Shown piece after piece: positions 13,304 to 63,771 of a stretch of 64,000 nucleotides of DNA. Numbering within the stretch: the first letter of the stretch is position 1; each line of letters begins with the position of its first letter. Below the pieces are notes generated by a model. That model was not told the origin of the DNA. It saw nothing but the letters and a program-made list of their open reading frames with translations, and did not search any database. The DNA comes from an uncultured Chloroflexia bacterium (lineage in GTDB: Bacteria; Chloroflexota; Limnocylindria; Limnocylindrales; CSP1-4), in NCBI GenBank assembly GCA_963697135.1, contig CAVOMZ010000007.1, positions 209,110 to 273,109 of the forward strand. Reading direction: 5' to 3'. The position numbers were made by a program, and so were the translations under genes.

Positions 13304-14371
13304 CTACTTGACCGCGAGCGTTCCCGTCATGTTCGGGTGGACCGCGCAGTGGTACGTGTACGCCCCGGCCGGCAGCGCCGGCACGCTGTAGTCCTTGGTC
13401 GCCGGGCCGTTGAAGATGTCGCCGGTAAAGACCGTCGAGCCGCCCGAGTTGACGATCACGACGTTGTGCGGGACCGAGGCATCCATGTTGTTGAACTGGA
13501 GGTCGAAGGCCGTGTTGGCCGGGGCCGCCAGCGTCGTCTGGGTGAAGGCGATGTTCTGGGCGTCGAGCTTGACCACCGTCTCGCCGGGGGCCGGGGTGGT
13601 GGCCGGGGTGCTGGCCGAAGGCGAGCTGGTCAGGGCCGAGCTCCAGCAGGCCGGCACCGGGGTCGCCCCGGGTGGCGGGGCGTAGTTCGGGTCGCGCCAG
13701 CCGTTGAACGTCTCGGGCTTGCCGTTCGGACCGATCACCGGTTCATTCGTGCTGGCGTCCCGGACCTGGTAGGTCATCGTGCTGGGCGCCCGGATGAAGT
13801 CGATCAGGTTCTGGATCTGGATGTAGTTCAGCGGCCCGCCGTTGATGTCGGCCCAGACCGGCATGAGGCTGTCGGGGTTGCCGCAGACGTAGCGGCCACC
13901 CACCGTCAGGACGTTCTGGATGTACTGCGGGTTCAGGTGGACGTAGAGCTTGATCTGGCTGTTCAGGACCGGCCCGATTCCGCCCTGGCCGGCGGCTCCG
14001 TGGCAACGGGCGCAGTTTGCCTCGAACAGGTTGTAGCCGGCCTCGACCGAGGTGACCTGCTGGGCCGCGACCTCGGCCTGCTGGCGGGACGAGTTGGCCA
14101 CGCCCGGAAAGCCCACGTCGTAGAACCAGTACAGGATCACGAAGACGACGACGAAGAGGGTCGCCAGGAAGCCGACCCAGCGGGCGCTACCGCTCTGGCG
14201 GACGATCCCGGCGGCCCGCTCCGGGGTAAGCGCCGCCTGGTGGGCCGAAGGTGGAGCAGAGAACCGTTCGACCGGGGCCGGCGTGCTTTCGGGGCGGGCG
14301 GCCGGCAGTCGTTCGTCGCCGCCCGAGGGCGTCGGCAGGGAGTCGTTCGGGCCGCTCATGCTCACAGGCAC
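13304..14371 (-). CDS. Membrane-anchored mono-heme cytochrome c fused to a C-terminal cupredoxin domain
   Basis: TM FLATLFVVVFVILYWF. Heme motif CARCHGAAGQGG. C-terminal VPHNVVIVNSGG...CAVHPNMTGTLAVK, paralogous to the COX2 C-terminal domain. Last gene of the bc operon. Confidence 0.85.
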   Translation of the reverse strand: MPVSMSGPNDSLPTPSGGDERLPAARPESTPAPVERFSAPPSAHQAALTPERAAGIVRQSGSARWVGFLATLFVVVFVILYWFYDVGFPGVANSSRQQAEVAAQQVTSVEAGYNLFEANCARCHGAAGQGGIGPVLNSQIKLYVHLNPQYIQNVLTVGGRYVCGNPDSLMPVWADINGGPLNYIQIQNLIDFIRAPSTMTYQVRDASTNEPVIGPNGKPETFNGWRDPNYAPPPGATPVPACWSSALTSSPSASTPATTPAPGETVVKLDAQNIAFTQTTLAAPANTAFDLQFNNMDASVPHNVVIVNSGGSTVFTGDIFNGPATKDYSVPALPAGAYTYHCAVHPNMTGTLAVK

Positions 14372-46982: not shown

Positions 46983-48626
46983 TCAGCGGCGTCGGCGAGC
47001 GTGCCGGCCGGTGGGCTTGCGGCTGTCAGCCATCGGGGCGAACCCGACGACCAGGGCCACGACCGCGAACAGGATCATCAGGAAACCGATGTTCGACGAG
47101 GAGCCCGACGGGGTCACCGGGTCGACCGTGCTGGTCGCCGGCGGCGTGATCCGCGGGGTCGCCGTGGCGGCTTCGACGCCACCGGTCGGCGTGGCGCTCG
47201 GGGTTGGCGTCACGACCGGCGTCGGCGTCGGCGTGGGCGTCGGGGTGGGCGTCGGCGTCGGGGTCGGCGTGGGCGTCGGCGTCGGCGTGGGCGTCGGGGT
47301 CGGCGTGGGCGTCGGCGTGGGCGTCGGCGTCGGGGTGGGCGTCGGCGTGGGCGTCGGCGTCGGCGTGGGCGTCGGCGTCGGCGTGGGCGTCGGGGTCGGC
47401 GTGGGCGTTGGGGTCGGCGTCGGGGTCGGCGTCGGCGTGGGCGTTGGGGTCGGCGTGGGCGTTGGGGTCGGCGTGGGCGTCGGGGTCGGCGTGGGCGTCG
47501 GGGTCGGATCGGCGACCGTCACGGTGGCCGAGTCGGTGTCGGTGACCTGGGTGTTGCCGTCCCAGCCGCTGGCGGTCGCGACGTTCGTCGTGGTCTGGGT
47601 CAGGTTGCTCGAGCAGGTGAACGACCAGGCCTCGGTCAGGTCGAGGGCGTTGTTGCTGTTGGCATCCCCGGACACGTAGCTGACCGAGGCGCACTTGTCG
47701 TCAGAGACGGTGACGTTGGTCAGGGCCACGTTGCCCACGTTCGTGACGGCGTAGGTGTAGGTGACGGAACCGCCGCCGGCCGGCAGGTTCTGGACGCTGG
47801 CCGACTTGTGGATCTCGATCGCCGGCCGGCAGGTGATGTCGGTCGTGATCTGGCTGAACACGTCCTGGAGGTCGCTGGCATTGACGACGTGGAAGTAGTT
47901 GGCGGCGGGCTTGGCGAGCGACTCCATCAGGGGCAGGTCGACCGCGTTCGAGCCGCTGCCGCCCTGGCCGATGGCGATCGAGTAGACAGCGTCGGCGGCA
48001 GCCTGGAAGTCGCTGATGTTCTGGGCCGTCGGCCGGGCGCCGCTTGGGCCGGTGTTATCCGGGTTCGGCCGGCCATCCGAGACGAAGATGATCACGTGCT
48101 GGACGGTCAGGTCGTTGGCCGTGGTCCGCTTGTGGGCGGTCATGTCGGCGGCGCCCTTGGCCATCCCCTGGCGGAGCGGCGTATCGCCGTTCGCGGTCAG
48201 GCCGTCGATCGCGCTGCCGACAGCCGACGCGCTGGAGGTCCCGAGGGCCAGGTTCGTCGTTGCGTTGTCGTTACCGAACGACGACAGGCCGACGTGATGC
48301 CGGCCGGAGCCGCCGACGCCGCCTTCACTGTTGAGCGTGTCGACGAGATCGTGGGCGGCGGCCTTGGCGTAGTACATCCGGACCTGGGGCGGGTTGCCCG
48401 AGGCGTTCTGGGTCTCGCCCATGCTGCCGGACCGGTCGATCACGAGCTCGACGTCGAGCGGGACGATGCCGCAGCCGGTGTCGGCCACGGCGTGGGGAGT
48501 GCTGGCCGCCGCCACCGCGCCCGTCGAGAACGGCACCGCGGCGGCGGCGAAGAAGAGAGCCGCCAGCGAACCGGCCAGCTGGCGGGCTCGAGGCGGCTTC
48601 CGGAAGGTCCTGGCAGAGGTCGACAT
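46983..48626 (-). CDS. Cell-surface von Willebrand factor A (VWA) domain protein with a Thr-Pro repeat stalk and a C-terminal TM anchor
   Basis: Signal peptide [44 protein letters not shown]...S.G...T. A region resembling a DUF11-type conserved repeat. About 45 tandem Thr-Pro repeats. Anchor [17 protein letters not shown] plus RRRR. Confidence 0.8.
47215..47510. repeat. Hexanucleotide-based tandem repeat (GGCGTB GGBGTC)n encoding (Thr-Pro)n on the minus strand
   Basis: About 300 bp of near-perfect GTCGGCGTGGGC / GTCGGGGTCGGC units inside the VWA gene. It is coding, so not CRISPR. Confidence 0.85.
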
Positions 48627-48888: not shown

Positions 48889-50715
48889 TCAGGGGACGAT
48901 CAGGTGGACTGGGTTGCCGATGATCTGGGCCGTCCAGGTCGTGACGTCCTGGGACGTCCCGCTGCCGTTCATCGAATAGAGGATCTTCCACCAGCCGTTC
49001 TGCTGGGCCGTGTAGTTGGCCGGAATGGGCACGTCCATCGTCAGCCAGCAGCCGTTGAACAGGCCCAGCGATGCCCCGGTTGAGGTCTGGACCCCGCTGA
49101 CCTGGCTGCCCCCGCTCGAGTTCGAGTTGCAGGCGTTGTTCCGGTTGCCGTTCGTGGTCCCGGTCACGGCTGAGTAGGTGAACGGCGTGTTGCTCCAACC
49201 GGCTGCCGTCGGGATCTGGATGGAGAGTGTGGCGCTCAACGGGGAGGTGTCGCCGGGGTCCCAGAGGCTGAGCTCGAGGGTCTTGCCGGCGTAGAAGTTC
49301 GGGACCTGGGCGAGGTAGAAGGTCGAGCTGGACGTTCCCGAAAGCGGGGTGAACATCTGCATCGCGCCCAGGCCGTAGACCGTCGGTAGGAGGCCGTTGC
49401 TGGTCGTTCCCTGGGTGTCGTCGGCAAAGATCGCAAAGCTTTGCTCGCCGTCGGTGCTCTTCTGGTTGGCGGAGCCCGCCGTCGTATTCGGGGGCAGCGT
49501 GCCGGTCGTGTGGAGGCGGTAGACCGTGCCGTTGGCGCCGCCGGTCAAGCCGCTGTAGAGGAGATACCACGAGTCGTGATAGTTCAATCCGTTTGCGACC
49601 CCGCCCGTCTTGTAGACCGTGGTCACCTGCTTGCACTCGGTCGCGCCGCTGGGGATCGAGGCCGGCGGCGTCGGGTCGGGGTTCATCGTCGAATCGAAGC
49701 CGTTCTGGTCCTCGAAGAGGGTGCCTGACGTAGCCAGTCGGGTGTCATCCGTGTTGTCGTAGGGGGTGTTATTCGTGTTGAACAGCTCGTACCAGGAGCT
49801 GACCGGGTTGTTGCCGCCGAACCAGCGATCGCCCGTCCCGCTGGCGATGTCGGTTGCGCAGAAGGTTGGGTCGAAGACGAAGACCCGGCCACCGGTCGTA
49901 TTGGGCGGCATCGAGATCGCGTAGTTGTAGTAGTTCGTCGGGTCGTAGCAGGCGGTGATCCCTGAAGTGGTCCCGCACGTCTTGGCTGGCGAGCTCGTGG
50001 CCGTGTCGTAGAAAGGCTGGAACGCGTCACCATCAACGTTGTTGGCGCCCTCCGTGTTCATCGTCGCCCAGAACCCGCGCGGGTTCAGGGTTTGGCCGCC
50101 GGTGTCCTTGAAGCAATTGGCGAGGCCGTTTGCGCACACCGCCCCGGGTCCGCTGAGGGTCGTCTGGCCGCTGGGCGTCGTCACCAGCGCCCCGTTGAAG
50201 GTCTGGTTGCGGACGACGCCGAAGTTGCCGTAGTAGTTCTCCGGGCTGCCCATTGGAACGGGCAGGGTGAAGAGGGCCTTCGAGCTCCGGGTCGACTGGA
50301 TCTTCTGGATCCCGAAGATCCGCATGAAGAACGTGTTGACCGGGGCGCTGATCGTGACGTCCATCTGGTTCTTGACCGTGCCGTCCTGGACGGCCGAGAT
50401 CGTGACCCCGCCGCCCGGGACATAGCCATTCTTCTTGGCTTCGGCCAGGGCATCGGCCGTGCCGCTCGACGGTGCACCGGGCAGGTCGACCGCGCCGGCC
50501 AGGGCGGCGGAATCGGCGGCCCGCTGAATTCGGAGCGAGTTGCTCCAATACCAGCTGACGTCGATCACGAGGGCAATGAAGCCCATCAGGACGAAGATCG
50601 ACAGGACGAGCAGGACGAGGATCTGGCCGCGCTGGGTCCGCGTCCTCGGCTGCCGAATGGCCGCTGACCTGGCGCGCAGACGGGCTGCAGGAGTCGAGGG
50701 CACGGTCGTACTCAC
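48889..50715 (-). CDS. Large TadG-like pseudopilin-family protein (Tad N-terminal domain plus large extracellular domain), copy 1
   Basis: The GTG start overlaps the upstream TadE stop by 1 nt. N-terminus ...RTQRGQILVLLVLSIFVLMGFIALVIDVSWYWSNSLRIQRAADSAALAGAVDLPG. C-terminus ...TWTAQIIGNPVHLIVP. Confidence 0.75.
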   Translation of the reverse strand: MSTTVPSTPAARLRARSAAIRQPRTRTQRGQILVLLVLSIFVLMGFIALVIDVSWYWSNSLRIQRAADSAALAGAVDLPGAPSSGTADALAEAKKNGYVPGGGVTISAVQDGTVKNQMDVTISAPVNTFFMRIFGIQKIQSTRSSKALFTLPVPMGSPENYYGNFGVVRNQTFNGALVTTPSGQTTLSGPGAVCANGLANCFKDTGGQTLNPRGFWATMNTEGANNVDGDAFQPFYDTATSSPAKTCGTTSGITACYDPTNYYNYAISMPPNTTGGRVFVFDPTFCATDIASGTGDRWFGGNNPVSSWYELFNTNNTPYDNTDDTRLATSGTLFEDQNGFDSTMNPDPTPPASIPSGATECKQVTTVYKTGGVANGLNYHDSWYLLYSGLTGGANGTVYRLHTTGTLPPNTTAGSANQKSTDGEQSFAIFADDTQGTTSNGLLPTVYGLGAMQMFTPLSGTSSSTFYLAQVPNFYAGKTLELSLWDPGDTSPLSATLSIQIPTAAGWSNTPFTYSAVTGTTNGNRNNACNSNSSGGSQVSGVQTSTGASLGLFNGCWLTMDVPIPANYTAQQNGWWKILYSMNGSGTSQDVTTWTAQIIGNPVHLIVP

Positions 50716-51368
50716 TAGTTCGAGGTTGGGTTGAACTGCATGATGGTTGCGTCGGTCATCGGGATCGTCGCCGCCTGGTTGCCCCCGATCAGCTTCAGCG
50801 CACCGGCCAGCGGCGTCGTCAGCTTGTAGGTGTAGGTGATCGAGATCCCGATCGAGTCGACCGCCCCGGCAAACGTGTGGCCATCGACGTTCGAGCGCGA
50901 GCAGACGCTCCAGCTGTTGGAGCCACCCGGCTTGAAGTTCAGGACGATGCCGTTGGCGTCGGTGAAGGGCGACGCCGTATAGACCCAGTCGTTGTCCTTG
51001 CCCAGGGTGTCGCCGCCGTTGCTGTCGGCCTGGAAGATCCGGATCCTGCCGACCTGTGACAGGGGGATCGGTGAGCCCGTCGAGGCGAGGATCCGGTCGA
51101 CGGCCTCGACGATCGTTGGGTCGACCTTGGTCCCATTCGGGCAGCCCGTGCCGCCGCCGTCGACGAGATCCGCCCCGATCCGGGCGCCCTCGCGGGTCGC
51201 GTACTGGAGGGTCAGCTGGTGGTTGAAGGCAAAGCCGAGCTCGAGCATGCCCAGCAGGAGGATCATGAACAGCGGGACCATGAGCGAGAACTCGACCAGG
51301 CCCTGTCCCCGCTGGGTGGCCCGGCGGCGGCGAGTTGTCCAAGCGATCCGGCGAATCGGGCCGGTCAC
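50715..51368 (-). CDS. TadE-like pseudopilin, copy 1
   Basis: QRGQGLVEFSLMVPLFMILLLGMLELGFAF (G/xxxxEF prepilin-type motif plus a hydrophobic helix), 217 aa. Confidence 0.8.
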   Translation of the reverse strand: MTGPIRRIAWTTRRRRATQRGQGLVEFSLMVPLFMILLLGMLELGFAFNHQLTLQYATREGARIGADLVDGGGTGCPNGTKVDPTIVEAVDRILASTGSPIPLSQVGRIRIFQADSNGGDTLGKDNDWVYTASPFTDANGIVLNFKPGGSNSWSVCSRSNVDGHTFAGAVDSIGISITYTYKLTTPLAGALKLIGGNQAATIPMTDATIMQFNPTSN

Positions 51369-52037
51369 AGGATCGGCTCCATCCGCATCTCATTCGAACG
51401 GGTGATCGTGAAGTTCCCGGTCGGCAGCGGCACGAAGTTCATCAGCGGCGTATGCCAGTTGTACGTGTAGGCGACCTGGACGCCGATCGTGTCGCGGGTT
51501 CGGAGCGTGTTGTTCGGGCAGCCGAGCGATGTAGTCACAGCGGCCGCCCGCACCGCTGACGAGGTTGGGCAGGCCCTCGGGATAGTTCGTGGTCGTCAGC
51601 TTGAAGGGCGTCGTGGCCGAGCCGCCGTACAGGCTGCAATCGGTTGTGGGCGACGTGCTGTGGACCCAGGTATTGCCCGAGGTGGTCACGTTGCCCGTCC
51701 ACGGGCCGCCGGATGAGTTTGCCCGGTAGATGACGATCGAGCTGATGTTCGCCGCCACGACCGGCGGGTTCATGTCGGCCAGGACCTGCTTGATGATCTG
51801 GCAGTCGGCGCCCGCGTTCGAGCCGGCCTCGGCCCCGATCAACGAGGCGTCGCGCGTGGCGTAGTTCTCGCTGAGCACGGCGTTGAAGGCGAAGGCGAAC
51901 TCGATCGTGGCCAGGAGCAGGATCAGGAAGAGCGGGAAGACAAGCGCGAACTCGACCAGCGACTGTCCATCAGACCTGGACGATCGGCGGCGTCGGCTGA
52001 GAGTCGGGCGATGCATGGTCTCCGAAGTCCTGGGCAC
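51365..52037 (-). CDS. TadE-like pseudopilin, copy 2. Frame shift near 51545.
   Basis: SDGQSLVEFALVFPLFLILLLATIEFAFAF. C-terminus in ORF 51365..51553 ...VQVAYTYNWHTPLMNFVPLPTGNFTITRSNEMRMEPIL*. Confidence 0.7.
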
Positions 52038-52264
52038 GGCTGGAGGAGTTGATAGGTTATCGACGGCGATGGTCCGGTCGACCCATCACCGCTTCATAGG
52101 ACCAAGGTCCCAGCGGGGAACGCGAAGACTACGGAGCCTACCTTGCAGACGACCTTGAGAGAAAGAGCCCGGCCCGAGCGTGGAACGCGGTTCGCGTTGC
52201 CCGGTGGCAACAAGCCGGCTGGCGTCAGCCAAAGCGCCCAGGCGGCCTAGGGCCGGGCGTCTTC

Positions 52265-54012
52265 CTAGGGCACGATCAGGTGGACCGGATTGCCCCGGAC
52301 GCTGACCCGCCAGGTCGTCGTGTCGTTCGACTGGACCCCTGATGCGATCCGGTAGTCGATCTTCCACCAGCCCGCCTCCGACTCGCCGTGGGGGGTCAGG
52401 CCACTGCTGCCGTACGTGGCGGGCAGGGGGATCAGGATCGTCAGCCACGAGTCGTCGAAGGGATGGCCTCCGCCCGGGAACGTGGCCGTGATCGAATTGA
52501 CCGCCGCGCCTGAACAGTTCGAGCCGATCGCGTTGTTGCATTGCGCGTCGGCCGTGTAGTTGAAGGTCGGGTTGGAATAGACGTTGCCGTCGGGGTCCTC
52601 GACGAACAGCGTCGCCGTGCCCTTGACGTCACCGACGTCGAAGAGGTCGATCTCGAGGGTCTTGCCGGCGTCGATCGCCGGGATCTGGGCCAGGTAGAAG
52701 ACCTGGTCGCCGCCGGCCACGTTGTTGTAGGCGACCATCGAGCCTTCGCCGTGGACCTGCGGGCTGGCCGCCCCGGCAGCCGTCACCTCGAGCGAGTACA
52801 TGTTCTCGGCATTGACGTTGGCGTTGACCGACGGATCGAGGACGTCGTGGCCGCCGTCGCGCGACGTGTCGACCTTGGTCGTGGTCACCTGCAGCTCATA
52901 CTCGCCGGCAGGCAGCCCGCCGGCCATCGTCCACCAGCGGTCGTGGAACGGGTCGTGGGCGCCGCTCGTCGGGCAGGCGCCGGCGGTACCCGTGTAGTCC
53001 AGCCCTGGGTCGCCCCCGGTGTTCGCCTCGAACTGGCTGCCCGAGGTCGCCACGAGCGAGTACTCGTTCGTCGCCAGCGGGTTGCCGTGGGTGTCCCACA
53101 GGTTGTACCAGGTCGAGACGGGGTTCTGCGGGCCACCGATCCAGTGGTCGCCGACGCCCCAGTCGCCCTTCGTGTCGCCGGGCTTGGCGTCGCCCGAATC
53201 GACCGAGCAGAAGCCCGGGTCGAAGACGTGGACGCTGCCATTGCCATCGCCGGGCGGGACGAGCACCTCGTAGTAGACGCCGGCCGGGCTGTAGCTCGGG
53301 TTGCCGCCCCGGGCGGCGTCGGAGGTCGGGTCGAACGCGTCCCCGTTCGAGGCGTCGCCGCCCTTGCGTGATCGCCGACACCGAAGAAGCCCTGGCTGGG
53401 GATCTGGGCGGGCGCCGTCGGGCCGGTCGGCGGCGAGGGGTTCGACCGGCTCGCATCCGGGATCCCGCTCGGCCCATTCGATCCGCCGCCGGCACAGGCC
53501 GGCTCGGGGCCGGTCGGGGTTCGGAGGCAGCCGACCCCGTACCAGGCCTGGGGACTGCCCATCGGCACGGGCAGGACGTAGACCGCCTTCGAGGTCCGAG
53601 TGGCCGTGATCGTGTCGAGCCCGAAGACGCGCATGAAGAACGTGTTGACCGGCTCGGAGATCGTGACGTCAAGCTGGCGGTCGTTGGCCGGGTCGGGATA
53701 GGCGCACATCCCGGGCACGCTGGCGGGGCTGACCCCGTCGGCGCCGCAGCCGTTGGTGACGACGTAGCCGTTCTGGCCGGCGGCCGTGGCGGCCGTGGCC
53801 TCGCCTCGGGCCACGTCGGCCGGGAGATTGACCACGCCGGCCAGGGCGGCAGCGTCGGCCGCGCGCTGAACCCGCAGGCTGTTCGCCCAGAACCAGGAGA
53901 TGTCGACGACGATCGCGCAGAAGCCCAGCAGGACGACGATCGCGGCGGCAAAGATCACCAGGATCTGGCCTCGCTGTCGGGGGCTCCGGGCGGGCGGGAG
54001 GCTGACGGTCAT
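52265..54012 (-). CDS. Large TadG-like protein, copy 2. Frame shift near 53260-53400.
   Basis: ATG at 54012: MTVSLPPARSPRQRGQILVIFAAAIVVLLGFCAIVVDISWFWANSLRVQRAADAAALAGVVNLP. C-terminal half in ORF 52265..53266 ending ...RVSVRGNPVHLIVP. Confidence 0.7.
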
Positions 54013-54026
54013 CGTGCTCAGCGCTC

Positions 54027-54640
54027 CTAGCTCGAGCCCGGGTTGAGCTGCATGACCGTCCGGTCGGTGATCGTCAGGGTCGGGTTGCCCCCGCCGAAGA
54101 AGCCCTCGATCGTGGCCAGCGGCGTCTGGAAGTGGTACGTGTACGACACGCTTACCCCGATCGAGTCGATCCGCGGGGCGACGTTGCTCCGACTGCAGGC
54201 CGGCCAGGCGTCGCCGCCGGGGAACGAGGAATTCGACGAAATCGAGCGGCTGGGTATCGCCCGCCGGCACGGGCCCGGCGCCGGGGGCGTAGGTCCAGAC
54301 GTCCTCCAGCCCCTGGTCATTCGCTCCGGTGGTGGGGTCGGCCTTGTAGATCACGATCCGGGAGACGTTGGCGACCAGGACCTGCGAGCCCGGCGAGGTG
54401 AGCACCCGCTCGACGGCGGCGACGACCAGGGGATCGACCGTCTGCCAGCTGGCCGCTCCGGGGCAGCCCAGCGGACCGCCACCGTTATCCAGGGCGGCTC
54501 CCGCCCGGGCACCCTCGCGAGTCGCGTATTCGATCGTCAGATCGTGGCTGAACACGAACCCGAACTCGATCATGCCCAGCAGGATCAGCAGGAAGACGGG
54601 CAGGATCAGGGCGAACTCGACGAGGCCCTGACCGCGCTGC
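54027..54640 (-). CDS. TadE-like pseudopilin, copy 3. Frame shift; start codon unclear.
   Basis: Reverse-complement translation ...SGQRGQGLVEFALILPVFLLILLGMIEFGFVF, then ...YATREGARAGAALDNGGG..., and a C-terminus ...GVSVSYTYHFQTPLATIEGFFGGGNPTLTITDRTVMQLNPGSS*. Confidence 0.55.
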
Positions 54641-54676
54641 CCGCTTGAACTCCCGTCCGGCGCCGGCGGGCCAGCC

Positions 54677-55336
54677 TCACAGGACCGGCTCCATCCGCAT
54701 CGGGTTGGACTCGGTCAGCGTCCAGCCGTTGCCGAGCAGGCCGAGCAGGCCGTGGAGGGGCGTCCGCCAGGAGTCGTGGTAGGTGATCGCGACAGCGATC
54801 GTGTCAGGCCCAGGGTGGCCGGGCAGGCAGCCCTCGCTCGTTCCGCCGATGTCGTTGCAGCGGGCCGAGTCCGGGTAGGTGGCCGGGCCGTCGAGCGAGT
54901 AGGGCACGGTCTTGCTCGTGCCGTCGGGGAGCCGGCACGTCGTCGTGCCCGTCCGGCTGTACGAGTCCACGGCCTGGCCCGGCCCGGCAGTGACGTTCCC
55001 GTTCGGGTCGAGCAGCTGGCCGGTGCTGCTCGTCCAGTAGATCTGGACCTCGGTGATGTTCGCGGCGCTCGCCGGAGCGCTCACGTCCTGCTCGACCTTG
55101 GCCAGGATCTGGCAGTCCGCCCCCAGCCCGTTGCCGGCCTCGGCCCCGATCAGGGCGGCGTCTCGCGAGGCGTAGTTGATCGAGAGCAGGCCGTTCATCA
55201 GGAAGGCGAACTCGATCAGGCCCATCAGCAGGACGAGGAAGACCGGGATGACCAGGGCGAACTCGACCAGCGCCTGGCCATCCGGCGCGGATCGGTCGGC
55301 GGGCCGGTGACGAAGTCGGCGGTCCAGGGTCGGCAT
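54677..55336 (-). CDS. TadE-like pseudopilin, copy 4
   Basis: ATG at 55336: MPTLDRRLRHRPADRSAPDGQALVEFALVIPVFLVLLMGLIEFAFLMN... C-terminus ...TESNPMRMEPVL*. Confidence 0.75.
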   Translation of the reverse strand: MPTLDRRLRHRPADRSAPDGQALVEFALVIPVFLVLLMGLIEFAFLMNGLLSINYASRDAALIGAEAGNGLGADCQILAKVEQDVSAPASAANITEVQIYWTSSTGQLLDPNGNVTAGPGQAVDSYSRTGTTTCRLPDGTSKTVPYSLDGPATYPDSARCNDIGGTSEGCLPGHPGPDTIAVAITYHDSWRTPLHGLLGLLGNGWTLTESNPMRMEPVL

Positions 55337-55694
55337 GTTCGAGTGTGGCGGGGCCATTGCGCTGCGGCCGGCCCGTCCACCGGGCGGCCGATGGCAGGCG
55401 CGGACTATCGCCCGGTCCGCCGAACCCGCGAACAATAGGCAAGCTGCCGTATTGCGCGGCCCGGTCAGGCCGCCGAGGCCCTGTCGGGCGCCGCGGCGCG
55501 GGGCTCGCGCGGGCAGGGGCTTCTGCGGCGGGGATACCACGGGACTAGCAGCGCCTCGAGCCGGACGGCTCTCAGCCGGCTCGCCAGGCCCCGCCGGGCC
55601 TACCCGCCAAGCTACCTGTCAATGAGGATGTCTACTGGATATCCTCGGGCGCCTCCGGACGAACCCGGCTCCGCGGGATCCCCTAGCTACGAGC

Positions 55695-57428
55695 TCAGGG
55701 CACCACGAGGTGGACCGGGTTGCCCAGGACGTTGACCTCCCAGGTCGTGAGGTCGCTGCCGCCGCCGACGGTGTAGGTGACCTTCCACCAGCCGGCCTGG
55801 CTCTCGCCGGTTGGGGTCAGGCCGACGGAGCCGTAGCTCGAGGGCAGCGGGACGAGGATCTTGAGCCAGGAGTTCTGGTAGAAGCTGCCTCCGGAGGTGG
55901 CATTGGGGCAGCCCGCCGGTGGGGTGAGGCCGGAGGTGGACCCGCCGTTGGCCTGGATGCAGGTCACGTTCGTGCCCGAGGTGTGGCCCGACGAGGCGTT
56001 CGAGTCGGCCGTGTACGAGAACGTCGCCGGGGTGTACACGTTGTTGTCCGGGTCGAGGATCTGGAGCCAGGCCCCGCCATTCACGTCGCCCACGTCGAAC
56101 AGGTCGATCTCGAGGGTCTTGCCCGCGGCGGTCTGGTCGATCTGGGCCAGGTAGAACGTCTGGCTGCCCAGGGCCAGGTTGTTGTAGGCGGCCATCCGGC
56201 CGCCGCCGTAGACGGCCGGCGAGCCGCCGCCGGTGGCCATGATCGAGAACATGTTCTCGGCATTGGTGCTGGCGTTGATCGACGCGTTCGACGGGTTGGT
56301 CGTGCTGATCTGGACCCGGTACGTGCCGGCCGACAGCCCGCTCGCGGTCGAGCCGTTGCCGGAGCCGACCAGCCACCACTTGTCGTGGTAGGCGCTCGCT
56401 CCGCAGTCGGTCACGCCACCGCCGACGGCCGGGCCGCCGTTCGTCACGTCCGAGCCCTGCTGGTTCTCGAAGAGCGTGCCGGAGCTGGCGACGAGGACGT
56501 CATCGGCGGTGGTGAAGGCCGTGCCGTTCGTGTTGTAGACGCTGTAGTAGGTCGAGACGGCATTCGTGCCGCTCAGCCAGTGGTCGCCGGCGCCCTGGGG
56601 CAGGCCGGCCGCGTTGTTGCCCATCGCACAGAAGGCAGGGTCGAAGACATAGATGGCCCCGCCGCCGGAGGTGAACTTCACGGCGTACGAGTAGCCGTTC
56701 GGGTCGTAGTTGGCATTCGCCCCGCACGATGAGCCGCAGCTCGTGTTGTTGTTCTCGGGCGAGAAGGCGTCACCGTTGGACTGGTTGCCGCCGCGGGTCT
56801 GGACCGAGCCCCAGAAGCCCTGGCTGTTCAGCTGCGAGCCCGTGAACACGGTTCCGCTCGTCGAAAGGGGCACCCCGCTGGCCCCGTTGCTCTGGCCGAC
56901 CGTATTGCACGTCGCATGGGTCGCGCTCAGGTCGAAGCAGCCGACCCCGTAGTAGGCCTGCGGGCTGCCCATCGGCACCGGCTGGACGTAGATCGCCTTC
57001 GAGGTCCGGGTGGCAGTGATCGTATTGAGCCCGAAGATCCGCATGAAGAACGTCTGGACCGGGGCCGAGACCGTGACGTCGAGCTGGCGCGGGTCGGTCC
57101 CACCGTTGAGCGAATCCTGGATCGGGGTGACCGTCACCCCTCCCCCGGCCGTGTAACCGTTCTTGGTTGCCTCGGCAATCGCGTAGGAGTAGGCACTGGC
57201 GGTGTTCCCGGGCAGGTAGACCGCTCCGGCCAGGGCGGCCGCATCGGCCGTTCGCTGGACGCGCAGGCTGTTGGCCCAATACCAGGACACGTCGACGACG
57301 ATCGCGACGATGCCGATCAGGGCCACGATCGCGCCCGCGAAGATCACCAGGACCTGGCCTTGCTGGGCCTTCGTCCGGCGCCGGTTCGTGACCGGTCGAG
57401 GCAGGCGGCGATTCGAGTTCAGGCGCAT
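55695..57428 (-). CDS. Large TadG-like protein, copy 3 (intact)
   Basis: 577 aa. ...KAQQGQVLVIFAGAIVALIGIVAIVVDVSWYWANSLRVQRTADAAALAGAVYLPG...EVNVLGNPVHLVVP. Confidence 0.8.
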   Translation of the reverse strand: MRLNSNRRLPRPVTNRRRTKAQQGQVLVIFAGAIVALIGIVAIVVDVSWYWANSLRVQRTADAAALAGAVYLPGNTASAYSYAIAEATKNGYTAGGGVTVTPIQDSLNGGTDPRQLDVTVSAPVQTFFMRIFGLNTITATRTSKAIYVQPVPMGSPQAYYGVGCFDLSATHATCNTVGQSNGASGVPLSTSGTVFTGSQLNSQGFWGSVQTRGGNQSNGDAFSPENNNTSCGSSCGANANYDPNGYSYAVKFTSGGGAIYVFDPAFCAMGNNAAGLPQGAGDHWLSGTNAVSTYYSVYNTNGTAFTTADDVLVASSGTLFENQQGSDVTNGGPAVGGGVTDCGASAYHDKWWLVGSGNGSTASGLSAGTYRVQISTTNPSNASINASTNAENMFSIMATGGGSPAVYGGGRMAAYNNLALGSQTFYLAQIDQTAAGKTLEIDLFDVGDVNGGAWLQILDPDNNVYTPATFSYTADSNASSGHTSGTNVTCIQANGGSTSGLTPPAGCPNATSGGSFYQNSWLKILVPLPSSYGSVGLTPTGESQAGWWKVTYTVGGGSDLTTWEVNVLGNPVHLVVP

Positions 57429-57481
57429 GGAGTCAATCTCGAGTACGGGCGGGGTGAGATCACGTTCCGCCGGACGTGAGG

Positions 57482-59208
57482 TCAGGGCACGACCAGGTGA
57501 ACCGGGTTCCCCAGGACGTTGACCTCCCAGGTCGTGGTGTCGTCACCGCCGGCAACCTGGTATTCGATCTTCCACCAGCCCGGCTGCGTCTCCCCCGGAG
57601 GGGTCAGCCCGGTCGAGCCGTAGGTCGATGGGAGGGGGATCAGGAGCTTGAGCCAGGTGTTGTTGAACGAGCTCGCGCCGCCCTTGGCCGTCTGGACGAC
57701 GGTCGTTCCGCTGGCGTTCGAGCAGGCGTCGCTCTTGCCCGCCATGGCAGTTCGAGTCGGTGCTATAGGTGAACGTGGCGTAGTTGTAGGCGTTGCCGTC
57801 GGGGCTCAGGACCCGCAGGAAGGCGTCACCCGGACACGTCGCCGGGGTCGAACAGGTCGATCTCGATCGTCTTGCCCGCGGCAGTCTGGTCAATCTGGGC
57901 GAGATACATCCGCTGGTAGCCACTGCTCAGGACGTTGTAGCCCGCCATCCGACCCAGGCCGTGGACCTCGGGCGAGCCCGAGCTGTCGGTCACTTCGATC
58001 GACCAGGCGTTCTCGGCCTGCGCCTTCCAGTTGACCGCCCCGACCGCAGCCGACTGGATCAGGACGCGGTACGTCCCGGCGGCCAGGCCGGTGGCCAGCG
58101 GCCACCACTTGTTGTGCCAGTAGCCGCCGATCGCCGGACTGGCGATCTTGCCGGCGCCGCAGTCGATCGCCGTGCGGCCGTCGGCGCTCGTGTCGCCGAC
58201 CGCCGGGCCGCTCGAGCCGACCGTTCCGTAGGTCCCGCTGTTGTCGATCTGGAACTCCTGCTGGAACAGGCTTCCGGAGGCGGTGACGAGCGAGTCGTCG
58301 GCTTCGGTAAAGATCGTGTTGTTCGTGTTGTACAGGCTGTAGTAAGTCGAGACCGAGTAATACTTGCCGGCCGTCCCGCCGTATTGGCGGCTGTTGTCCG
58401 CGTTGTAGTGGTCGGCAACGCCGTAGCCCCCGCCGACCGGGCAGAACGTCGGGTCGAAGATGTACACGGCTCCGCCGTTGGCCGGAACGACGACCTGGTA
58501 GTTGTACGGCTCGCCGTTCACGGCGTAGTCCGGGTTCGTCCCGCCGGCCGAGTTCGATCCGGGATTGAGCGGGTCGTTGTAGGGCGTGAACGCATCGCCT
58601 TCGTTGTGCTCATCACCGGACGATTGGATCGCTCCCCAGAAGCCCTTCGAGGCGAGGGTCCCGACGCCGGTTGCGTTCGGAACGGCCGTCGTCGAGTCGC
58701 AGTTCGAATCGGATGGGGTCGTCAGGCAGGACACCCCGTAGTAGTTCTCGGGGCTGCCCATCGGGACGGGCTGCACGTAGATCGCCTTCGAGGTCCGGGT
58801 CGCCGTGATCGTGTTGAGCCCGAAGACGCGCATGAAGAACGTCTGGACCGGCGCCGAGATCGTGACGTCGAGCTGGCGCGGGTCGGTCCCGCCGTTGGCC
58901 GTGTCCTGGAGTGGCGTGACCACGATGCCGCCGCCGGTCGTGTAGCCATTCTTGGTGGCTTCATTGTCGGCGTACAGGTAGGCGTTCGTGGTGCTGCCCG
59001 GCAGGTAGACCGCGCCGGCCAGGGCCGCCGCGTCGGCGGCGCGCTGGACGCGCAGGGTGTTGGCCCAGTACCAGGAGACGTCGACGACGATCGCGACGAT
59101 GCCGATCAGGGCGACGATCCCGCCGGCAAAGATCACCAGGATCTGGCCATTCCGCCGCCGGCGCGAGAGCCGGGTGCCGGGGGACGTCGGGCGCGCCGAA
59201 GCAGGCAT
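57482..59208 (-). CDS. Large TadG-like protein, copy 4. Frame shifts near 57750-57900.
   Basis: N-terminal part is ORF 57826..59208: ...RRRNGQILVIFAGGIVALIGIVAIVVDVSWYWANTLRVQRAADAAALAGAVYLPG.... C-terminus in ORF 57482..57745: ...EVNVLGNPVHLVVP. Confidence 0.7.
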
Positions 59209-59218
59209 CGGAGCGTCC

Positions 59219-59848
59219 TCAGTTCGTCGGGTTGAGCGACATGACCGTCTTGTCGGTCATCGTCAGGGTGGCCGGCCCGGCCGGACCGAAGAACTTCTCG
59301 ATCGCGCCGAGGGGCGTGACCATCGTGTACGTGTAGGTCAGGCTGACCCCGAGCGAGTCGGGCGGACAGACGTTGCCGCTGCAATACGAGGGGCAGCCGC
59401 TGCTGCAGATCCAGGTCGTGTTGTGGCGGTTGCAGGGCGTCCAGACGGGCGAGGCCGGCGGGGTGAACGTCATCGTCCCGTCGTTCTTGTTCAGCCAGGT
59501 ATTGGTCGTCCCGGCGATGGGATTGCCGCTCAGGTCGGACTGCCAGATCTTGATCGAGGACACGCCGTTGGGATAGCCGACGATCGGCGAGCCGGGGCTC
59601 TTGAGGACCTTGGTCACCGCGTTGATGATGTTCTGGTCGATCGCGTTGCAGGTGGCCGTCACCCCGCCCCCGTCGGCCAGGGTCGAGCCGGCCCGGGCGC
59701 CTTCGCGGGTCGCGTACTCGAGGCTGAGGTTGTGGGTGAACACGAACCCGAATTCGAGCATGCCCATCAGGAGCAGCAGGAAGGCCGGCACGATGATCGC
59801 GAACTCGACCATGCCCTGGCCCCGCTGGCGCTCGCGTCGGCGGCTCAC
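59219..59848 (-). CDS. TadE-like pseudopilin, copy 5
   Basis: GTG at 59848 overlaps the upstream stop (GTGA). ...RQRGQGMVEFAIIVPAFLLLLMGMLEFGFVF...TMTDKTVMSLNPTN*. Confidence 0.75.
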   Translation of the reverse strand: MSRRRERQRGQGMVEFAIIVPAFLLLLMGMLEFGFVFTHNLSLEYATREGARAGSTLADGGGVTATCNAIDQNIINAVTKVLKSPGSPIVGYPNGVSSIKIWQSDLSGNPIAGTTNTWLNKNDGTMTFTPPASPVWTPCNRHNTTWICSSGCPSYCSGNVCPPDSLGVSLTYTYTMVTPLGAIEKFFGPAGPATLTMTDKTVMSLNPTN

Positions 59849-60463
59849 AGGACCGGCTCCATCTCCATCGCGTTCGACTTGACGATGGTCCAGCCGGGCC
59901 CGGTGAAGCCGAGCAGGCTCTTGAGCGGGGTATGCCAGGTGTAGTTGTAGGTGACCTGGACGCCGATCGTGTCGAGGCCGGAGTGGCCCGAGGCGCAGGT
60001 CAGCCCCGCTGATGATGTTGCACCGGCTCGACTCGGGGTAGCCGATCGTGGGCGTGCCGTAGGGCAGGGTGAAGGTCGAGCCTCCGACGGTGCACGAGAT
60101 CGTCTGGGACGTGCTTCGGGGGTAGGTGTTGACGTAGCCACTCTTCTGGGCGCCGGTCGTCGAGTCCGCCCAGTAGATCTGGACGTTGACGATGTTGCTG
60201 GCGTTCGACGGGCCGCTGATGTCGTCCTCGATCTTCTTGAGGATCGCGCAGTCGGCCCCGGTCGCATTGCCGGCCTCGGCGGCGATCAGGGACGCGTCGC
60301 GGGTCGCAAAGCTGGCGGCCAGGGTCGCGTTCATCAGGAAGCCGTACTCGATCACGCCGACCAGGAGGACCATGAACAGGGGGAAGACGAAGGCGAACTC
60401 GACCAGGGCCTGGCCCTTGCTGTTCGGCCGGTGAAGGCGCGTGTGGCGGAGCGGGCGGATCAT
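59845..60463 (-). CDS. TadE-like pseudopilin, copy 6. Frame shift near 60000.
   Basis: ATG at 60463: MIRPLRHTRLHRPNSKGQALVEFAFVFPLFMVLLVGVIEYGFLMN... C-terminus in ORF 59845..60267 ...GVQVTYNYTWHTPLKSLLGFTGPGWTIVKSNAMEMEPVL*. Confidence 0.65.
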
Positions 60464-60831
60464 CTTCTCCGGCTTCCGTGGCGGTCCCGTCACCTGGGTC
60501 GGTGCGGCCTGTCCAACGATGCTTTGACGGTCGGCGTCCGTGCCATAGCCCGAACGTCCTAATTCGCGCGGCCCGAGCCGAGCTGCTGCAGCAAACACTG
60601 GGGCGGGCACCTTTCGGACGACCTTGGCGCGGAGGCAGCCGATTGGGGTAGTACCCGGGCCGGCTGAGCGTGGTCGCGCAGCTCGTGGTGCCCCCGGGCA
60701 CCGATCGCCGGGCCCGCCGTCGCAACCGGGCCGCAACCGCCGTCCGATCACGCCGGACTGCCGGCCCGGGTATCCTGTCGAGCGTCAGATCCCCAAAATT
60801 CCCCGACCCGCCAGATGGACAGGTGGTGCTC

Positions 60832-62001: not shown

Positions 62002-62324
62002 GCACGGAGCTGCTCAACTCGCTGGCCCTGTTCGTGCTGGCGATCCTCGTCGGCTTTGAGGTCATCAGCAAGGTCCCGGCCACCCTCCACACGCCGCTCA
62101 TGTCGGGTGCCAACTCGATCCATGGGATCGTCCTGGTCGGGGCGATGCTGATCGCCGCCGAGGCCGACAACCCGCTGAGCTACCTGCTGGCCTTCGTGGC
62201 GATGGTCTTCGGCGCGATGAACGTCGTCGGGGGCTATGTCGTGACCGACCGGATGCTCCAGATGTTCCGCAAGAAGGCGCCGGCCAAGCCGGTCGCCTCG
62301 GACGAGACCGAGGGCCAGGCCTGA
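61998..62324 (+). CDS. pntAB: NAD(P) transhydrogenase subunit alpha, part 2 (membrane)
   Basis: 108 aa, three TM helices: LALFVLAILVGFEVISKVPATLHTPLMSGANSIHGIVLVGA. Confidence 0.85.
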   Translation: MSTELLNSLALFVLAILVGFEVISKVPATLHTPLMSGANSIHGIVLVGAMLIAAEADNPLSYLLAFVAMVFGAMNVVGGYVVTDRMLQMFRKKAPAKPVASDETEGQA

Positions 62325-63771
62325 TGAGCCAGGCCTGGATCTACACCTTCGTCTACATCGCCTGGCTGATCGGGGCGGCCTGCTTCGTCCTCGGCCTGCA
62401 CCAGATGAATTCGCCGGCGACCGCCCGCAACGGCAACCGGCTGAGCGCCTCGGGCATGGTCGTGGCCGTCGGGGCGACCCTGGTCCAGCTGATCCTCCGG
62501 CCCGAGGGCCTGAGCGCGGCCGCCCTGGCGATCATCGTCATCGGCTTCCTGATCGGTGGCGGCGCCGGCCTGTACACGGCCCGGACCGTGAAGATGACGG
62601 CGATGCCCCAGCTGGTGTCCCTGTTCAACGCGGTCGGCGGCGGGGCGGCCGCGCTCGTCGCGATCGACGACTTCATCCGGCTCACTGGCGCCGGCGGAGC
62701 CGATACCGCGACGACGATCTTCGTCGTCCTCGGGGCGATCTTCGGCTCGGTCACCTTCACCGGCTCGCTGATCGCCGGGGGCAAGCTCCAGGGCCTCATC
62801 CCGGGCAAGCCGATCGTGGTCCCGGGCGGCCGGATCCTGACGATCGCGATCGCCGCGGTGGCCGTGATCGGGACGGCGGTCCTGGTCCTCGCCGCGGCCG
62901 GCAGCCCTGACCCTCGACTCCTCGGTCGTCCTCGTCGTCCTGGCCCTGATCGTGGCGGCCGGCCTGATCTTCGGGATCACGATGGTCCTGCCGATCGGCG
63001 GGGCCGACATGCCGGTCGTGATCAGCCTCCTGAACGCCCTGACCGGAACGGCCGCGGCGATGGCCGGCTTCGTGATCGGCAACCCGGTCCTGATCATCGC
63101 CGGAGCGCTCGTCGGTGCGTCCGGATCGATCCTGACCAACCTGATGGCAACGGCGATGAACCGATCGATCCTGAACATCCTGGCCGGCGGCTTCGGTACC
63201 GGCGATTTCGACGGCCGGGGCCACGGCCGGCGGAGCTGGCGGGAGCGTCCGCGAGATCTCGGCCGACGACGCGGCGATCCAGCTGGCGTACGCCCAGAGC
63301 GTGATCATCGTGCCCGGCTACGGCCTGGCCGTGGCCCAGGCCCAGCACCAGGTCCGCGAGCTGGCCGAGCTGCTCGAGTCGAAGGGCGTGGACGTGAAGT
63401 ACGCGATCCATCCCGTCGCCGGCCGGATGCCCGGCCACATGAACGTCCTGCTGGCCGAGGCGAACGTGCCCTATCCCCAGCTCAAGGAGATGGACGAGAT
63501 CAACCCGGACTTCGAGCGGGCCGACGTGGCCCTCGTCGTCGGCGCGAACGACGTGACGAACCCGGCTGCCCGCCACCCTGGCTCGCCGGTCTCGGGCATG
63601 CCGATCCTCGACGTCGACCACGCCAAGTCGATCATCGTGATCAAGCGCTCGATGGGCCGCGGCTACGCCGGGATCGACAACGAGCTCTACACGGATCCGA
63701 AGACGGGGATGCTCTTTGCCGACGCCAAGGAAGGCCTGTCGGCCCTGACCGCGGCGGTCAAGGCGGTCTAG
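62324..63771 (+). CDS. pntB: NAD(P) transhydrogenase subunit beta. Frame shifts near 62900-63300.
   Basis: N-terminal TM region in ORF 62324..63304. C-terminal NADP(H) domain in ORF 63301..63771: ...VIIVPGYGLAVAQAQHQVRELAELLESKGVDVKYAIHPVAGRMPGHMNVLLAEA.... Confidence 0.8.

Follow-up and report, generated by a model that had tools for sequence, protein, structure and literature searches.

What does an array of ten minor pilin genes do in a stretch of chromosome that carries no pilus machine? This question is raised by a 64-kb piece of contig CAVOMZ010000007.1 (hereafter the window, meaning the whole stretch that was analysed), from an uncultured Chloroflexia bacterium of the Limnocylindria. 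Ten consecutive minus-strand genes, at 48889-60463, follow each other in the order E6-E5-G4-G3-E4-E3-G2-E2-E1-G1, where E stands for a small TadE-like protein and G for a large TadG-like one. The window has a G+C content of about 70%, and reading frames were chosen from third-position GC together with the alignment of paralogues. A first-pass annotation had reported this array, its gene order and its motifs, and all were recovered here. We propose, at a probability of roughly two in three and by analogy with a characterized system, that the array encodes heterotrimers that serve a single Tad pilus as alternative tip or priming complexes, the pilus machine itself of which the genes would lie elsewhere. 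Three suggestions had been made in the first-pass annotation, and the one that fits best sees in the array several sets of tips that one Tad pilus could use as alternatives.

The six small proteins (205-226 aa) all carry the motif G/Q-x-x-V-E-F, in which the slash marks the cleavage site, followed by a hydrophobic helix, as had been claimed. The motif reads GQALVEFAF, GQGMVEFAI, GQALVEFAL, GQGLVEFAL, GQSLVEFAL and GQGLVEFSL across the six; an Arg-rich leader of 9-27 residues precedes the cleavage site and about 20 hydrophobic residues lie past it. All six therefore possess a prepilin-peptidase-type site, G/XXXXE(F/Y), with a short basic leader. The N-terminal motifs by which the genes were recognized match the Pfam models TadE and Tad above their gathering scores. 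Indeed, TadE (PF07811, cut-off 22.9) was matched by E5 (57.1 bits, E 1.9e-15), E1 (54.6 bits, E 1.2e-14) and E4 (46.0 bits, E 5.5e-12); the three copies with broken frames (E6, E3 and E2) have the same motif, and the homologues of E4 carry PF07811. The six genes had been taken as one kind, but they form two strictly alternating subfamilies, Ea (E6, E4 and E2) and Eb (E5, E3 and E1). Identity is 44-49% within Ea, 41-47% within Eb and 25-32% between them, and the C-terminal endings differ as well, MEP(V/I)L in Ea and NPxxN/S in Eb. An AlphaFold2 (AF2) model of E4, with a predicted local distance difference test score (pLDDT) of 80 and a predicted template modelling score (pTM) of 0.72, has a 49-residue alpha1 helix (residues 26-74) and a beta-sheet head, an arrangement that resembles the pilin topology.

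Aligning the ten proteins, a check proposed earlier for defining unit boundaries and divergence, delimited Ea-Eb-G units whose paralogues are 36-53% identical. The array thus consists of three Ea-Eb-G cassettes (E6-E5-G4, E4-E3-G2 and E2-E1-G1) and a fourth large subunit, G3, as judged from the sequence, and the Pfam matches agree with the view of TadE-like and TadG-like proteins in repeated E-E-G units. All genes described here lie on the minus strand, and lengths "after repair" refer to the frame breaks considered below. Unit 1 opens with E6 (59845..60463), an Ea-type TadE-like minor pilin of 205 aa after repair, with its motif G/QALVEFAF at 60415 and the C-terminus ...MEMEPVL. It continues with the intact Eb-type minor pilin E5 (59219..59848; 209 aa, G/QGMVEFAI, C-terminus ...SLNPTN) and with G4 (57482..59208), a large TadG-like minor pilin of 574 aa after repair that starts RRRNG/QILVIF...VDVSWYWAN and ends GNPVHLVVP. 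The large TadG-like minor pilin G3 (55695..57428; 577 aa, intact) has no E pair of its own. Unit 2 is opened by the intact Ea-type E4 (54677..55357; 226 aa), followed by the Eb-type E3 (54027..54657; about 210 aa, G/QGLVEFAL at 54633, start codon approximate) and by the large TadG-like G2 (52265..54012; 581 aa after repair), which starts PRQRG/QILVIF...VDISWFWAN and ends GNPVHLIVP. Unit 3 begins with the Ea-type E2 (51365..52016; 216 aa after repair, G/QSLVEFAL at 51968, C-terminus ...MRMEPIL) and comprises in addition the Eb-type E1 (50715..51368; 217 aa, intact) and G1 (48889..50715; 608 aa, intact), the most divergent of the large TadG-like paralogues. Tight packing with overlaps of 1-4 nt had been reported for the whole array. 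This is true inside units, where spacing ranges from -4 to +19 nt with 4-nt overlaps at E6/E5 and E2/E1, but not between them, where gaps of 53 nt (G4 to G3), 337 nt (G3 to E4) and 248 nt (G2 to E2) were found. The Ea-Eb-G unit follows the same logic of two small proteins plus one large one as tadE-tadF-tadG.

The four large proteins (574, 577, 581 and 608 aa) start with (N/Q/R)G/Q(I/V)LV(I/L), lack a Glu at +5 and close with GNPVHL(V/I)VP; the missing Glu and the invariant ending, both noted earlier, are seen in all four. The N-terminal consensus given for them holds overall, but NGQ and QGQ replace RGQ in G4 and G3, respectively, G2 has VDISWFW and G3 has QRTAD. Pfam Tad (PF13400, cut-off 22.3) was matched by G1 (42.6 bits, E 7.7e-11) and by G3 (32.7 bits, residues 24-69), and in both the match is confined to residues ~24-72. 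The remaining ~500 residues belong to no family in Pfam or NCBIfam. The sole NCBIfam model touching the N-terminus, at residues ~23-96, is TIGR03816 (Rv3654c family); its scores of 24.3 bits for G3 and 27.5 bits for G1 are below the cut-off of 50.95, and G is not a member. This resemblance to the Rv3654c-family TadE-like proteins is limited to the N-terminal helix region; the actinobacterial proteins are about 100 aa long, compared with 574-608 aa for G.

Pfam detected neither a vWA nor a Tad_C domain at the C-terminus of G, and no enzyme was matched by the C-terminal module when Pfam, NCBIfam and PDB sequence profiles were searched or folds compared; this module without a Pfam or PDB relative is new here. 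Structure prediction of a TadG-like protein had been recommended to see whether the large domain is VWA, lectin or adhesin-like. G3 was modelled with AF2 (pLDDT 76, pTM 0.69), and no binding or enzymatic fold was recognized in its C-terminal module; the model comprises a long alpha1 helix (residues 21-69), a small alpha/beta head up to about residue 147 and then a large, mostly-beta region. Used as a query, the module retrieved 945 cluster representatives from a library of 1.84 billion proteins, and in the full-length matches it is always C-terminal, in proteins of 540-800 aa. The paralogous modules diverge most at residues ~151-345, while FDPxFC, GxGDxW, H348 and DxGD hold the strictly invariant polar, Cys/His/Asp positions. 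In a subset of homologues of about 700-800 aa (P0073 and P0108), an extra domain of about 150 residues sits in the variable region, between the PMGSP..YYG and GFWG..GDAF motifs (columns ~290-460 of alignment A1). G1 is 36-38% identical to G2-G4. The pair G3 and G4 is different in that identity reaches 91% in the helix and 83% in the head, compared with 49-58% for the head in other pairs, and falls to 47-59% in the C-terminal module. Such a nearly identical base with differing modules would be natural for two large subunits, G3 and G4, that take each other's place on the same E6/E5 base.

We then asked whether the array is peculiar to this genome. The triplet had been described as amplified, as if by a recent or unusual local event, and a comparison of copy number with related genomes had been called for. 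Species-representative genomes were scanned, which gave 374 relatives, and 76 loci were retrieved. Over 1500 homologues of G3 were found. Homologues carry PF13400 and go under the NCBI name 'pilus assembly protein TadG-related protein'; those with a named source come from Chloroflexota, 'Candidatus Limnocylindria/Limnocylindrales'. The standard cassette is E-E-G, two TadE-like genes standing directly upstream of one G in most of 77 loci (numbered L001 and so on hereafter). Arrays of 10 genes (L004), 9 genes (L006) and 7 genes (L001 and L009) were found, with others in L023 and L039; L002 probably has ten genes, its last, G1-type gene not being detected as an intact open reading frame (ORF). 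L004 shares 92% DNA identity with the window, and the collinearity of the two extends across the entire array. A tree of 79 G proteins places the four copies of the window in four deep clades, each with orthologues elsewhere. The order of the G orthologues is conserved in L006, L009 and L004, and L006 has G4-, G2- and G1-type cassettes in the same order as the window. G4-type orthologues in L001, L003, L006 and L009 are 79-87% identical, and those of the G1 type occur in L004, L009 and L006. Since the four G genes belong to separate deep clades that are also represented in other genomes, and given the divergence of the paralogues, recent local amplification was ruled out. The sequences indicate instead an old, conserved multi-cassette locus with gain and loss of units. 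The first-pass annotation had named, as an observation that would count against it, the presence of the same ten-gene set as a standard feature of related genomes, and in part this is what we see, the same or similar arrays being conserved there. L001 does not have the E4-E3-G2 unit (7 genes instead of 10). Its segment 12121-12420, called a 99-aa 'hypothetical' gene, fuses sequence resembling that upstream of E4 (window 55345-55452) to sequence resembling that upstream of E2 (51775-52182), a junction which suggests either a deletion by inter-unit recombination or a gain in the lineage of the window.

Where, then, is the machine? Homologues of the T2SSE ATPase, the T2SSF platform, Flp and CpaB/TadZ were looked for in the window by motif and by Pfam on unplaced ORFs, and none was found; tblastn of the window with Limnocylindria core proteins revealed no Tad core homologue. 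The initial remark that pilin, ATPase and platform genes are missing from the window thus stands. Its extension to 12 kb on either side is right downstream, over 48.9 kb, but it overreaches upstream, where the window has merely 3.5 kb; in collinear relatives the core-free stretch extends 3.7-4.3 kb further. The genes upstream of the array, on the other strand, are pntAA, pntAB and pntB, and beyond them in relatives lie genes for RadC, an Rce1-like protein and a DZR protein. Cassettes are not linked to the core in 74 of the 77 loci. In the other three, L033, L054 and L077, the association is direct: according to Pfam, L033 has cpaF-tadB-tadC-E-E-G-DUF192 on one strand, and in L054 and L077 flp-cpaB-tadZ(receiver)-cpaF-tadB-tadC adjoins the cassette. 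In contig CAWINH010000006.1 a complete Tad core (415-437 kb) is separated by about 90 kb from a core-less cassette (314-335 kb). Core-less cassettes being the norm, the missing local core is no argument against a Tad role, and a 'non-pilus surface structure', as had also been suggested, is not needed to account for it.

The core itself appears uniform. CpaF is more than 90% identical across the class among the matches listed; the 3.1-Mb chromosome of a closed relative was not among the 120 CpaF homologues listed. The Flp prepilin of the class reads ...EEG/QTLVEYGLLLALIAIIV, a cleavage context that E and G proteins share, so that the G/Q-x-L-V site is common to Flp, E and G. No gene for a secretin (RcpA) or a prepilin peptidase was seen in the 20-kb core loci examined (L054, L077 and L078), and a prepilin peptidase gene was not met with in any of the other loci examined either; this would fit a monoderm-type envelope and a peptidase gene at another site in the genome. 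The core of the class includes a gene resembling RcpC/CpaB, and its TadZ bears a receiver domain at the N-terminus. A receiver-domain gene, known as a match of about 120 aa to the TadZ receiver domain, also precedes the cassette in several unrelated loci, by about 0.5-1 kb as counted from the first E motif and by about 2 kb as counted from G (L043, L045, L053, L056 and L057, at ~7.7-8.2 kb; also L016, L022, L028 and L075). Beside the core, other TadE-like genes were observed in L078 (15668-21402) and L077 (3152-7262), namely a PKD-fused TadE and a TadE with a faint PASTA match, together with a gene for a 372-aa partner without Pfam family and a DUF192 gene; the minor-pilin repertoire of the class is accordingly wider than the E-E-G family.

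A precedent for several minor-pilin sets on one machine exists. The Kil Tad pilus of Myxococcus xanthus has four KilL/M/N (TadE/F/G-like) triplets, Tip1-4; the genes of three lie away from the kil cluster (Herrou et al., Nat Commun 2025, PMC12075869). The Tips were modelled as heterotrimers in which the large subunit exposes a variable C-terminal domain, TadG-like proteins forming the backbone of the complexes, and they are required in combinations to kill different prey (PMC12075869). Like them, the cassettes described here are paralogous triplets, several per genome (three Ea-Eb-G units and an extra G), of two small TadE/TadF-like and one large TadG-like minor pilin. The variable C-terminal module of the large subunit has a fold without known relative in both cases, most triplets are away from the Tad core, all subunits have a prepilin-peptidase site, and the tips proposed are heterotrimers that could be interchanged on one Flp pilus. 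They differ in that the cassettes are in tandem in one array, whereas the Kil triplets are in separate clusters, and in that two alternative G genes probably belong to a single unit. The organism is a chloroflexotan, and the core is without a secretin gene in the loci examined and without a T3SS* partner; no type III secretion system (T3SS) genes were seen in the window. Hidden Markov models (HMMs) of the Tips were found in Myxococcota only (PMC12075869), which would place our array in a different sequence family; similar tips in other bacteria were inferred from structure models, and the genetic evidence comes from Myxococcus only (PMC12075869). With the canonical tadE-tadF-tadG genes of Aggregatibacter, Pseudomonas and Caulobacter the array shares Pfam TadE PF07811 and Tad PF13400. 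It also shares with tad/cpa loci the G/XXXXE(F/Y) site of the small subunits, the combination of two small genes and one large, and, in L033, the order cpaF-tadB-tadC-E-E-G. It departs from them by having three to four sets far from the core instead of one copy inside the tad operon, by a G module that is not of the vWA or Tad_C type of many TadG proteins and by a G with a pilin-type cleavage motif without Glu5. Multi-tip Tad minor-pilin cassettes as such are known already; what we describe is a probable further case from a lineage not yet cultured, in which the G module and the cis-element are new.

We therefore propose alternative tips of a single pilus on the basis of the three genomes in which a cassette adjoins the core or flp, the core located about 90 kb from a cassette and the Kil precedent (PMC12075869). 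The scenario would be as follows. The N-terminal hydrophobic helix would insert all ten proteins in the membrane, and the prepilin peptidase that also matures Flp would cleave them after the conserved Gly of G/Q-x-L-V. One Ea, one Eb and one G would then assemble by bundling of their alpha1 helices, and the resulting heterotrimer would prime Flp polymerization on the CpaF/TadB/TadC machine and so end up at the pilus tip. Minor pseudopilins without Glu5, of the GspK/PilX type, cap the tip complexes of type II secretion and type IV systems. Because G has no Glu5, the residue by which a subunit is connected to its upper neighbour, it would probably occupy the apex and display its beta-rich C-terminal module of ~430 residues. 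Through its paralogous G modules, one Tad pilus could then have several alternative tips of differing binding specificity, G3 probably sharing the E6/E5 pair with G4.

How might the cassettes be controlled? The regions upstream of E6 and E2 contain a direct repeat, CAAGGT-N6-(A/C)AAGGT, with a -10-like TAnnnT about 9 nt further on. The copies, both on the minus strand, are CAAGGT-N6-AAAGGT at 60609..60626, 163 nt upstream of the E6 start, a candidate regulator site or promoter element, and CAAGGT-N6-CAAGGT at 52140..52157, 141 nt upstream of the E2 start. In the 64-kb window only these two sites, at 60626 and 52157, passed the threshold of a position weight matrix. Exact AAGGT-N7-AAGGT boxes number 35 in 1.43 Mb (window and loci), compared with 0-3 in shuffles, and 26 of the 35 precede a same-strand TadE motif by 85-330 nt. 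L001, L002, L004, L005 and L006 have the E2-type box at the corresponding place, and the box occurs as well in L001-L006, L008, L009, L016, L017, L023, L025, L028, L029, L060, L071, L076 and L077. In the core loci it is found at L078:15597 and L054:9943, between the genes of an OmpR-type regulator/kinase pair, which it follows directly, and those of minor pilins; the OmpR-type regulator is encoded after tadC, in L078 for instance at 13371-14069. A sigma-70 promoter scan of the array gave 0 promoters and a terminator scan 7 terminator-like sites for 5 +/- 2 expected, neither being above chance. The conserved box is a new candidate regulator site, and its presence upstream of units 1 and 3 suggests that a common regulator could act through it to switch the cassettes on. 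The site of an OmpR/PhoB-type activator can replace the -35 element, and the layout of the box resembles such promoters. One can go further and imagine the Limnocylindria cassettes as one regulon, in which the OmpR-type regulator of the Tad locus, via the box in place of a -35 element, would pick an interchangeable tip for the Flp pilus, the G module would be an undescribed ligand-binding or catalytic fold, and the G3 and G4 heads would swap on the E6/E5 base. We regard this extended scenario as speculative, with the odds well against it. If true, it would amount to a programmable device for adhesion, or even contact-dependent attack, in an abundant uncultured soil lineage.

The integrity of the genes needs to be considered before any function is assigned to them. 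Intact genes had been implied, but half of the ten (E6, G4, E3, G2 and E2) are split across reading frames as the sequence stands. The breaks are single-base insertions in E6 (~60002), G4 (~57831 and ~57745), E3 (54232), G2 (53380 and 53367, 13 nt apart) and E2 (51524); E3 has in addition a 2-nt indel relative to L004 near its start, at about 54641. Taken with the loss of a whole unit in L001, this could mean that the array is decaying and that half of its genes are true pseudogenes, leftovers of an old expansion of Tad minor pilins. We find this very improbable. The insertions of E6 and G4 are absent from the orthologues in L001 and L004, and E3, G2 and E2 are intact in L004, which has breaks of its own in E6/E5, G4 and G3; L001 has none in its array. 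The housekeeping gene pntB (62324-63771) has two such insertions, at 63206 and 62903, and is an intact 483-aa gene in L001. Moreover, once the seven inserted bases were deleted, the ratio of nonsynonymous to synonymous substitution rates (dN/dS) relative to L004 was 0.03-0.11 (E4 0.11, E3 0.04, G2 0.09, E2 0.03, E1 0.07 and G1 0.08), with 0.03-0.09 for the three broken genes among them, values that indicate purifying selection. The nearest genomes are long-read Microflora Danica metagenome-assembled genomes (MAGs). As the breaks are not shared with relatives, occur also in pntB and coexist with a low dN/dS, they are probably consensus errors of long-read sequencing, and all ten genes are most likely functional. 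Collapse of near-identical repeats during assembly was ruled out as a cause, the paralogues being merely 25-53% identical. Apparent frame switches are seen elsewhere in the window, at ~6.3-7.0 kb (coxC), 27.4-28.0 kb (a GAF/GGDEF gene), 29.2-30.0 kb (a NodB-type deacetylase) and 31.6-33.5 kb (an ABC permease and binding protein), which likewise speaks against decay of the array in particular. Insertions number about 1 per 2 kb where a relative permits counting and are not at obvious homopolymers, and L004, a closed long-read MAG, has an independent set. This looks like a systematic problem of consensus errors in these high-GC long-read MAGs; with about one spurious insertion per 2 kb, apparent pseudogene arrays in Limnocylindria should not be taken at face value.

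Two other explanations accept the genes as functional. G could be an uncleaved type II membrane protein, that is a surface enzyme or adhesin, with E forming a short pseudopilus or secretion piston or acting independently of any filament. The lack of a nearby core, here and in most loci, and the missing Glu5 would be in line with this, the invariant polar, Cys/His/Asp positions could mark a catalytic or metal site, and a cell-anchored VWA stalk protein always adjoins the G1-type gene. Aggregatibacter TadG, moreover, has been described as a membrane-anchored component of the machine and not as a cleaved pilin. Yet G has the same G/Q-x-L-V site and leader style as Flp and E, it is always preceded by an Ea-Eb pair, the trio of L033 continues the cpaF-tadB-tadC operon and the module has no enzyme match in the databases searched. 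The published Tip models, too, put TadG-like proteins in the backbone of the tip complex (PMC12075869), and on balance we consider an uncleaved G unlikely. Alternatively, each cassette might serve a separate Tad-type machine, several pili or a competence pseudopilus, given that some bacteria have several tad loci and that L078 has other TadE-like types, PKD-fused and PASTA-like, beside its core. A single core type was seen in the loci examined, with the nearly uniform CpaF already mentioned for the matches listed, and separate machines are disfavoured for this reason. One cleavage motif is common to the four G and six E proteins, and the box shared by tandem cassettes (units 1 and 3) argues for co-use by one system, so this explanation appears quite improbable. 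The proposal of alternative tips on one pilus has its own difficulties. Neither the 64-kb window nor the further ~4 kb visible in collinear relatives contains a Tad core, flp or a prepilin peptidase gene, five of the array genes are out of frame as sequenced, unit 2 has only a degenerate remnant of the box and the behaviour of TadG in Aggregatibacter just cited speaks for a membrane anchor. To this must be added that 'adhesive specificity' is a guess, the C-terminal module of G having no recognizable binding or enzymatic fold.

If alternative tips are indeed what the array encodes, the adaptable Tad-pilus tip would not be peculiar to predatory Myxococcota, and exchanging minor pilins could be a general route to diversify one machine. 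Little is charted of the surface biology of Limnocylindria (formerly Ellin6529), Chloroflexota that abound in soil and are uncultured, and the top-ranked papers on Tad pili mention neither Limnocylindria nor Ellin6529. The locus offers material for follow-up in the form of four related but divergent tip modules of unsolved fold, the 'two heads, one base' pair G3 and G4, and a sharply defined cis-element from which the regulon and its regulator could be traced.

A last feature of the locus lies directly downstream of G1, where a VWA-domain surface protein had been reported. The gene is present on the minus strand at 46983..48626 and encodes, according to Pfam, a VWA and DUF7507/DUF11 surface protein; its Thr-Pro stalk is (PT)48, at residues 374-469, and not the ~45 repeats counted before. 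The protein has a Sec signal peptide, a C-terminal hydrophobic membrane anchor and an Arg-rich tail, and the dN/dS of its gene is 0.12. The VWA gene follows the G1-type gene directly in L004, L001, L002, L006 and L009, with 74-95% aa identity, and is the neighbour of this gene in every genome that has one. The VWA protein could be a partner or receptor of the putative tip system. More distant VWA genes are also located near G cassettes in L011, L023 and L048.

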